A DNA stretch of 64,000 nt from IMG/VR virus record IMGVR_UViG_3300045015_000053; one strand, written 5' to 3'. The DNA comes from a virus (lineage: Duplodnaviria; Caudoviricetes). Positions 29,545 to 30,720 of the stretch are shown here, one piece after another (within the stretch, counting starts at the first letter, position 1; each line of letters starts with the position of its first letter). Position numbers and translations under genes: made by a program. The notes beneath the pieces are model-generated. The model worked only from the letters and a program-made list of their open reading frames with translations. It did not search any database and was not told the DNA's origin.

Positions 29545-30720
29545 ATGAGTGAGAAGCTACACGTCAACGTCGGCACCATCGGTCACATCGACCACGGGAA
29601 GACCACGTTGACGGCCGCGATCCTCGCGGTACAGGAGAAAAAGGGACTGGCAAAGGCGAAGGCGTACAGCGCCATCGCGAAGGGCGGAACGGTTCGGGAC
29701 GCGACGAAGGTCGTGACGATCACGTCGAGCCACGTCGAGTACGAGAGTGACAAGCGTCACTACGCACACGTTGACTGCCCCGGTCACGCCGACTACGTCA
29801 AGAACATGATCACGGGCGCGGCCCAGATGGACGGGTCCATCCTGCTGCTTTCGGCCACTGACGGGCCGATGCAACAGACCCGCGAACACGTCCTGCTCGC
29901 AAGGCAGGTGGGCGTGCCGCAGATCGTGGTGTTCATCAACAAGTGCGACGTGGTTCAGGACCAAGAGATCCTCGAACTGATCGAGTTGGAAACAAGAGAG
30001 ATGCTCACCAAGTACGGGTTCGACGGTGACAAGACGCCGATCATCCGTGGCGCGGCGAAGCCGGCTCTCGACAACCCGACCGACCCGGAGAAGACCAAGT
30101 GCATCAGCGACTTGCTCGCCGCACTCGACAGCTACATCCCCGACCCCGTCCGCGCCGTCGAGCGGCCTTTCCTGATGTTCGTGGAAGGCGTCCACCAGAT
30201 CGTGGGACGTGGCACGGTAGCTACCGGCAAGATCGAACAAGGTGTCGTCAAGGTCGGCGACAAGGTCGAAATCCTCGGCCTCGGCGACATGAAGGAAAGC
30301 GTCGTCACCAGCATCGAAGCCTTCAACCGTCAACTGGAAGACGGGACCGCCGGACAGAACGTCGGCATCCTGCTTCGCGGTGTGAAGGCCGAAGACCTAC
30401 AACGTGGTCACGTCTTGGCCGCTCCCCGGAGCATCAAGCCGCAGACCAAGTTCAAGGCTCAGGTGTACGTTCTGGGCAAGGAAGAGGGTGGGCGGCACAC
30501 GCCGTTCATGAGCGGGTACAGCCCGCAGTTCTTCTTCCGCACCACGAACGTGACCGGGACGCTGACGCTGCCGGAAAACATCGACATGGTCATGCCGGGC
30601 GACAACGTGGCTCTCACCGTCGAACTGGAAAAAGCCGTGGCACTCGAAGCGGGTAGCCACTTCGCCGTCCGAGAAGGCGGCAAAACCATCGGTTCTGGAC
30701 AAGTGACCGAGGTGCTGTGA
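29545..30720 (+). CDS. tuf: elongation factor Tu (divergent switch I)
   Basis: [59 protein letters not shown]. Confidence 0.97.

Follow-up and report, generated by a model that had tools for sequence, protein, structure and literature searches.

A gene for the translation elongation factor EF-Tu lies at positions 29545–30720 (+) of a 64,000-nucleotide (nt) stretch, here called the window, of the IMG/VR virus record IMGVR_UViG_3300045015_000053, which derives from a very large lake-water phage. The reading that we favour, with a probability of about 0.72, is that the gene encodes a functional EF-Tu of a kind common to huge phages and planctomycetes, that its switch I loop is inherited, that it belongs to a subfamily with an altered aminoacyl pocket, and that it serves in the delivery of aminoacyl-tRNA. 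The first-pass annotation had considered instead that the phage had rewritten switch I, either as a resistance to host defence or as an adaptation to its own tRNAs.

The window protein matches the three Pfam families GTP_EFTU (PF00009), D2 (PF03144) and D3 (PF03143), and scores 598.1 bits against the equivalog model TIGR00485, for which the cut-off is 522.4. Against solved EF-Tus, the best match reaches an E value of 2.5e-166. The open frame spans 392 codons (29542–30720, +), within which the intact EF-Tu gene comprises 391 codons and a stop, as delimited by open reading frame (ORF) calls, Pfam, TIGR00485 and the length of a 99%-identical relative. ATG 29545 is the likely start, and the in-frame GTG at 29542 is less favoured, because a Shine–Dalgarno-like GGGAG, read from the sequence at 29534–29538 (+), precedes the ATG by six nt and because the 99%-identical relative is also 391 amino acids (aa) long. 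The G1 motif or P-loop GHIDHGKT (29581–29604, +), the G2 Thr within VVTI, the G3/switch II motif DCPGH with the catalytic His (29773–29787, +) and the G4 motif NKCD (29938–29949, +) are all present in the alignment. G5 reads AAK rather than SAL, a position that also varies in planctomycete housekeeping EF-Tus. Every residue checked for contacts with the nucleotide, Mg, the tRNA 5′-phosphate, the T-stem or the 3′-end, or for catalysis, is kept; in E. coli numbering these are D21, K24, T25, T61, H66, D80–H84, K89, N90, N135–D138, E215, T228, E259, F261, N273, R288, H319, Q329, R377, E378 and T382. Between phage copies, the ratio of nonsynonymous to synonymous substitution rates (dN/dS) is 0.03–0.04 in pairs with unsaturated dS and at most 0.19 in other pairs, which is purifying selection. 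The AlphaFold model has a mean confidence (pLDDT) of 85.7, and Foldseek superposes it on 1EXM (GTP form), 1EFT and 1TTT (Phe-tRNA ternary complex) with a template modelling (TM) score of 0.94 and a root-mean-square deviation of 2.1 Å. The gene most likely encodes a functional EF-Tu, activity being judged here from sequence and predicted fold.

Switch I (29665–29721, +) departs from the canonical form. Canonical and solved EF-Tus read IDNAPEEKARGITI and YDQIDKAPEEKERGITI in this region; the window protein is two residues longer, lacks RGITI and keeps the Mg-binding Thr. The canonical segment Y-D-Q-I-D-K-A-P-E-E-K-E-R-G-I-T-I is replaced by a different loop with two additional residues, in which Arg-Gly-Ile-Thr-Ile of E. 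coli has become Lys-Val-Val-Thr-Ile, with Val-Val in place of Gly59-Ile60. Alignment with solved EF-Tus thus bears out the absence of RGITI noted in the first-pass annotation. The same loop was found in all of the 120 best matches (70–99% identity) retrieved from a collection of 5.8 billion proteins, with the consensus I-A-K-G-G-T-V-R-D-x-x-K-T-V-T-I, and the window gene carries the Planctomycetia-type motif A/T-K-G-G-x-x-R-D-x-x-K-[TIV]-V-T-I, hereafter the KGG loop.

An EF-Tu match was detected in 143 of the 151 Planctomycetota genomes sampled, mostly one per genome. Switch I could be read in 29 of the 30 best loci: 26 had the KGG loop and three a second form without RGITI, which has five extra residues (A-K-A-S-E-S-Q-G-R-R-D-P-T-K-I-L-T-I). 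Thirty-six genes from the lower end of the identity range in this sample comprised 29 with RGITI, three with the five-residue form and four with KGG-like loops. Because the phylum is mixed in this respect, the KGG loop marks the lineage of the named Planctomycetia genera and not all Planctomycetota. On complete chromosomes, the KGG-type tuf gene is preceded by tRNA-Thr(UGU)-Tyr-Gly(UCC)-Thr(GGU) and followed by tRNA-Trp; this is the classic tufB-type tRNA setting, and the gene is therefore regarded as the housekeeping one. Exact look-up assigned such genes to Thalassoglobus polymorphus, Gimesia aquarii, Caulifigura coniformis, Lacunimicrobium album, Blastopirellula sediminis and Gemmata massiliana, and our statements on lineage draw on the ten proteins to which this look-up gave named genomes. 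Since all KGG-type housekeeping EF-Tus lack RGITI, that motif does not define the EF-Tu family. Jenkins and Fuerst (J Mol Evol 2001), a study cited by PMC3444138, reportedly described an 11-residue signature in planctomycete EF-Tu.

Some further variation in tuf was encountered in this sampling. The five-residue form (AKASESQGRRDPTKILTI; loci L039, L042–L044, L047, L055, L057, L059, L061, L075 and L091) occurs in Phycisphaerae, Verrucomicrobiota and Lentisphaerota, as well as on contigs of metagenome-assembled genomes (MAGs) labelled Saccharibacteria, Hyphomicrobium, Rhodomicrobiaceae and Acetothermia; these last cases may reflect transfer, recombination or mis-binning. One MAG labelled Planctomycetaceae (G001) has EF-Tu genes of both the five-residue form and the RGITI type, each on its own short contig (L120 and L122); the bin may be mixed, or the second gene may be real. 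In a group of Planctomycetota genomes with an RGITI EF-Tu (G029, G088, G119, G104, G133 and G040), tuf is present as two identical copies separated by about 16 kb (L263/L264, L265 and others). In the Gemmata-like housekeeping EF-Tu (433 aa; L207, L208, L210, L211 and L212), 32 residues are inserted after switch I and ahead of DCPGH, reading ...YESNDRTYA...LPYKDLLDYPG...KGRHYAHIDCPGH; this insert was seen in no other EF-Tu sampled.

Phylogeny against bacterial tuf paralogs, which the first-pass annotation had proposed as a check, places the phage gene inside the KGG lineage. Trees were built with FastTree from 269 sequences and with IQ-TREE from 103 and from 76 sequences; all are single-gene trees rooted on the RGITI sequences, and their topologies agree. 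The factors without RGITI form one clade, within which the KGG factors, the window gene included, form another, with a support of 99 in the Shimodaira–Hasegawa-like approximate likelihood ratio test (SH-aLRT). Within the KGG clade, a further clade (SH-aLRT 97) unites the window gene with all ten relatives from IMG/VR, with the genes of two contigs (586 and 669 kb) and with a number of bacterial genes. No housekeeping gene is among the members of this phage/accessory clade, and its sister is the housekeeping EF-Tu of the group of Gimesia, Thalassoglobus, Caulifigura and Lacunimicrobium (Planctomycetales). As the phage gene nests inside the Planctomycetia housekeeping lineage, the loop was inherited; read against these comparisons, switch I of the window protein is the ordinary planctomycete effector loop, acquired with the gene and not made by the phage. 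Housekeeping EF-Tus of Planctomycetia, for instance those of Gimesia aquarii (WP_144980955.1), Thalassoglobus polymorphus (WP_145202864.1) and Gemmata massiliana (WP_162670852.1), share with the window protein the two-residue-longer switch I (KGG[TI]VRD..KTVTI), the G motifs, the three domains and 60–69% identity. However, the phage gene lacks their tRNA-Thr-Tyr-Gly-Thr-tuf-tRNA-Trp locus, their start MAKE.FERTKPH and their pocket EDVF.

The bacterial members of the phage/accessory clade are stand-alone second EF-Tu copies, located on chromosomes and without tRNA context. They were found in Gemmata massiliana, G. palustris, Gemmata sp. SH-PL17, Gimesia aquarii, G. panareensis and Blastopirellula sediminis, and the earlier suggestion that the phage gene might derive from a bacterial paralog class has in this respect held up. 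Their settings vary: beside genes for isoleucyl-tRNA synthetase (IleRS) and DUF1501, near rpoA, or beside a histidine kinase. In a sample of one order, about a quarter of the genomes (28 of 121) had two EF-Tu matches, and where both copies were read, one was of the housekeeping and one of the phage/accessory kind. The second copies (for example WP_162671514.1, WP_144989493.1 and WP_145448086.1), annotated only as ‘elongation factor Tu’, resemble the phage gene in their place within the SH-aLRT 97 clade, their short N-terminus and the trend of their pocket (EGVH or EGVY in the copies of Gemmatales); they differ in being chromosomal without a tRNA array, and the basal copies of Gimesia and Blastopirellula still have EDVF or ENVF. 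Viral members occupy several basal positions in the clade. Approximately unbiased (AU) tests reject neither the monophyly of the phage genes (p 0.31) nor that of the bacterial accessory copies (p 0.41); the gene may have passed from phage to bacterium or from bacterium to phage. The EF-Tus of huge phages and the accessory EF-Tus of planctomycetes form a distinct, well-supported and apparently undescribed subfamily. Our literature search returned no paper on a second planctomycete EF-Tu, and a search of representatives clustered at 50% gave no resolution, all EF-Tus having collapsed.

No conserved neighbours of the bacterial second copies were detected beyond a Gimesia-to-Gimesia synteny with an AAA_22 ATPase. 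In both Gimesia species, a 275-aa AAA_22/STAND-like ATPase (L161:7305–8129 and L217:2500–3324) precedes the accessory EF-Tu on the same strand, a pairing that may be the synteny of close relatives. On one Gemmatales chromosome (L209, G508:C1:2468000–2487900), the accessory copy is only about 13 kb away from the housekeeping tuf, and the two genes run in opposite orientations.

The strongest changes specific to the phage/accessory clade are located outside switch I, as judged from 45 housekeeping sequences (RGITI, five-residue form and KGG) compared with 58 members of the clade. E215-D216-V217-F218 is invariant in all 45 housekeeping sequences. In the phage/accessory clade the same segment of the aminoacyl pocket tends to E-G-V-H, with G in 53 and H in 46 of the 58 members, and when the window protein is pooled with its 120 best matches, 119 pockets are readable, of which 116 are EGVH-like. 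The window protein reads EGVHQ (30184–30198, +) where the invariant form is EDVF[ST] (EDVFS at 215–219 of E. coli), hence D216G and F218H in the alignment, a mark of the subfamily; five of the seven positions H66, E215, D216, F218, T228, F261 and N273 are kept. The claim that the remaining G motifs and domains 2 and 3 are conventional accordingly stands for G1, G3 and G4 but not fully for domain 2. Gemmata second copies have E-G-V-Y, and basal copies in the clade still have EDVF, ENVF or EDVH, which suggests a stepwise change within the clade from EDVF/ENVF through EDVH to EGVY/EGVH. Further marks of the clade are V104L, R230K, G257S, M260A, D272Q and H301R/Q. The N-terminus (MSEKLHVN) is six residues shorter, with 12 residues before the P-loop against 18 in housekeeping proteins, and the otherwise invariant F5, R7 and P10 are dropped. 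Mutational work is reported to give R7 a role in aminoacyl-tRNA binding.

Residues 216 and 218 (UniProt 217 and 219) form part of the wall of the pocket that takes up the esterified amino acid (PMC6386890). Both have been altered in engineered factors: EF-Sep carries D217G and F219Y, and EF-pY carries D217G and F219G (PMC6386890), and D216A is a variant of EF-Tu for bulky residues (PMC4150793). The published rationale is that removal of the acidic side chain improves the binding of negative or bulky groups (PMC6386890; PMC4150793), Glu and Asp being held least tightly by the acidic pocket of normal EF-Tu (PMC6386890). The natural subfamily resembles EF-Sep, EF-Sep21 and EF-pY (PMC6386890, Table 1) at the same two positions, with D217G common to all three and F219Y or F219G beside it. 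In comparison with the full EF-Sep set (H67R, E216N/V, D217G, F219Y, T229S and N274W), the only identical change in the window protein is D217G; at 219 it has His, whereas the Gemmata copies have Tyr, and the natural proteins keep H67, E216, T229 and N274. The natural subfamily differs further in being a product of evolution, not of selection for phospho-amino acids, and in having mostly His at 219. A less acidic and roomier pocket would probably shift which aminoacyl groups are held well, an effect that we infer from these substitutions.

Pocket changes were also noted in other phage EF-Tus. A second lineage of huge-phage EF-Tu, on IMG/VR contigs of 427 kb (L028:5001–6164) and 38 kb (L031:1765–2922) and likewise located within clusters of tRNA genes, has retained an RG[IV]TI-type loop yet shows F218H in its pocket (EDTHS/EDVHS), and another locus (L013) has F218M. 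These may be cases of convergence among phage EF-Tus.

The replicon is that of a phage. The record from which the window comes has a length of 188,369 bp and a completeness of 37% as estimated by CheckV; its large ORFs beyond the window have matches to phage-only PHROG families (E values of 1e-60 to 1e-100) and to a phage DNA polymerase that is encoded in two separate ORFs. The EF-Tu gene is embedded in a tRNA array, as the first-pass annotation had stated: tRNA calls give 44 genes, all on the + strand, between 15136 and 53814. tRNA-Gly(GCC) (29347–29418, +) lies directly upstream at a distance of 127 nt and tRNA-Glu(CUC) (30784–30855, +) directly downstream at 64 nt, and the neighbours in the array are Glu, Gln, Lys, Asp and Asn tRNAs. 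No sigma-70-like promoter was found ahead of the EF-Tu gene, which is assumed to be co-transcribed with the array. The placement is conserved, since in 12 of 12 related viral or huge-contig loci EF-Tu is inside a dense tRNA array, with 4–29 tRNAs within 5–8 kb, and the surroundings of two more relatives (contigs of 670 and 104 kb) are phage-like as well. The tRNA types beside EF-Tu vary by phage subclade, being Leu/Ser/Tyr/Phe in L002–L011 and Glu/Lys/Asn/Gly in the subclade of the window. Contamination or a chimera was ruled out by the occurrence of the gene in a tRNA array on 12 independent phage contigs. A search of INPHARED cultured-phage proteins returned matches of at most about 60% identity, mostly unannotated or from bacterial-assembly records, and no close cultured-phage relative. 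In a 533-kb relative, ARAGORN calls a tRNA with a CUA anticodon (‘Pyl(cta)’; L004:4227–4317) about 700 nt upstream of EF-Tu.

Huge phages (>200 kb) have been described as encoding EF-Tu with tRNAs and other translation genes, with the proposed role of sustaining translation during infection (PMC7162821). The window gene is like the huge-phage EF-Tus of Al-Shayeb et al. 2020 (PMC7162821) in being a phage-borne EF-Tu beside tRNAs; the comparison is with the description given of those proteins, which in the text searched touches on neither switch I nor the pocket nor an ancestry in planctomycetes. As a planctomycete lineage signature, the odd switch I is explained away, in a kind of gene already reported from huge phages in 2020 (PMC7162821). 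Among divergent bacterial copies, actEF-Tu and EF-Tu3 of Streptomyces (PMC4342817), compared here by description, similarly form a dispensable second EF-Tu beside the housekeeping gene, but they belong to another lineage, have no reported phage members and are linked to stress and antibiotic resistance.

Under the favoured reading, EF-Tu would be produced alongside the phage tRNAs during infection of a planctomycete cell, bind aminoacyl-tRNA with GTP and bring it to the host ribosome, thereby adding to or securing elongation capacity, with an amino-acid preference shifted by the altered pocket. Several observations weigh against this reading. Its host, Planctomycetia, is proposed from the EF-Tu gene alone. 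The phage tRNA-Trp, tRNA-Gly and tRNA-Thr have at most 75% identity to any bacterial tRNA and are no closer to those of Planctomycetia. The 188-kb fragment yielded neither the planctomycete-typical SBP_bac_10 and PSCyt1, for which there was no working control, nor the widespread N_methyl. Neither EF-Ts nor EF-G was found in the fragment, which is about 37% of the genome, and in view of the lack of EF-Ts there the factor would depend on host EF-Ts. The loss at the N-terminus could weaken aminoacyl-tRNA binding, and the pocket change could equally indicate a narrower or a non-translational role. AlphaFold confidence is low at switch I and switch II, and only there, as mobile loops usually give. 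To our knowledge, very few phages are known for the planctomycete phylum. Together, loop and phylogeny would be a clue to the host, pointing to Planctomycetia for a phage group with contigs of up to about 670 kb.

It is possible, though not likely, that the protein is no general factor and is instead dedicated to aminoacyl-tRNAs that ordinary EF-Tu holds poorly, such as those charged with an acidic residue (Glu or Asp) or with one that is bulky or modified, and misacylated intermediates; some of the deviant phage tRNAs could be included. The substitutions D216G and F218H/Y fall on the two positions engineered for phosphoserine, phosphotyrosine and bulky residues, Glu and Asp are the poorest ligands of the normal pocket (PMC6386890), the pocket changed stepwise in the clade, and F218H recurs in the unrelated huge-phage lineage with the RG[IV]TI-type loop; the location among Glu, Gln, Lys, Asp and Asn tRNAs would fit as well. 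On the other hand, only two of the six EF-Sep positions are changed, H66, E215, T228 and N273 being as in other EF-Tus, the tRNA neighbours are not constant (Leu/Ser/Tyr/Phe in L002–L011 against Glu/Lys/Asn here), and no dedicated synthetase or conserved partner lies beside the bacterial copies. Tuning to the phage tRNAs, proposed in the first-pass annotation to act through switch I, does not hold for that loop and survives only in this changed form, through the aminoacyl pocket. A use outside translation, as a structural or replicative cofactor comparable to the roles of EF-Tu in Q-beta replicase or T4 head assembly, has precedents (PMC13157829; PMC13581612) and is very unlikely here, as the contacts for GTPase function and for the tRNA 5′-end, T-stem and 3′-end are conserved under strong purifying selection and the gene is fixed in tRNA arrays.

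Two further explanations invoke host defence. A divergent EF-Tu might be a spare that maintains translation when abortive infection cleaves, modifies or sequesters the host factor, which we consider doubtful. EF-Tu is a known target or component of defences, being cut by Lit at Gly59-Ile60 (PMC3014915), cleaved by Type IV Thoeris and bound at domains II–III by Avs7 (PMC13581612), and the phage copy is only 60–69% identical to housekeeping planctomycete EF-Tus, with clade-specific changes in domains 1, 2 and 3. Nevertheless, switch I is the same in the presumed hosts and would offer no escape there; the Lit family PF10463 was found in one of 301 Planctomycetota genomes, a weak count given that the control matched 0 of 14 reference genomes; and the presence of the subfamily on bacterial chromosomes is unexplained by pure counter-defence. 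That the phage itself rewrote switch I, against Lit-type cleavage or for its own tRNAs, is scarcely credible. The scissile Gly59-Ile60 is indeed Val-Val here, and a switch I Gly said to aid monovalent-cation binding is also replaced (PMC4342817). The position is homologous to that of E. coli EF-Tu, the Lit substrate, with the Mg-binding Thr conserved, and the Gly59-Ile60 bond is absent from the window protein and from the EF-Tu of the presumed hosts alike. Because the latter has the same loop, the loop could be no counter-measure to cleavage at this bond in such hosts. It is the housekeeping form in Planctomycetia, found in the tuf of six named genera and in all 120 nearest relatives, and it maps to one clade older than the phage genes. 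The housekeeping EF-Tu of the host group, as inferred from this one gene, thus shares the switch I that had been ascribed to the phage.

The occurrence of one subfamily both in phages and, on the chromosome, in cultured Gemmata, Gimesia and Blastopirellula implies that the gene for a core translation factor has moved between phage and host. Its natural substitutions at two pocket positions used in code engineering possibly make it a natural scaffold for genetic-code expansion. More speculatively, a natural subfamily with a re-shaped pocket might carry aminoacyl-tRNAs that ordinary EF-Tu rejects or binds only weakly (acidic, bulky, modified or misacylated ones, for instance), phages using it with their own tRNAs to re-weight decoding and the bacterial copies being either phage-derived or the source; we regard this as a tentative idea with the odds against it.

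Other ORFs were noted near the EF-Tu gene in the array. Small ORFs that are rich in Cys and carry the HNH-like motif CANCHRK(I/L)H at the C-terminus are located at 28245–28664, 30904–31329 and 33368–33994 of the window, between paired tRNA genes of the same type and on both sides of EF-Tu. Directly 3′ of tRNA-Glu(UUC), a 223-aa ORF (31442–32113) contains a unit of about 20 residues in three or four tandem copies, KDKPAVYPGVNN.RD.IAAT.

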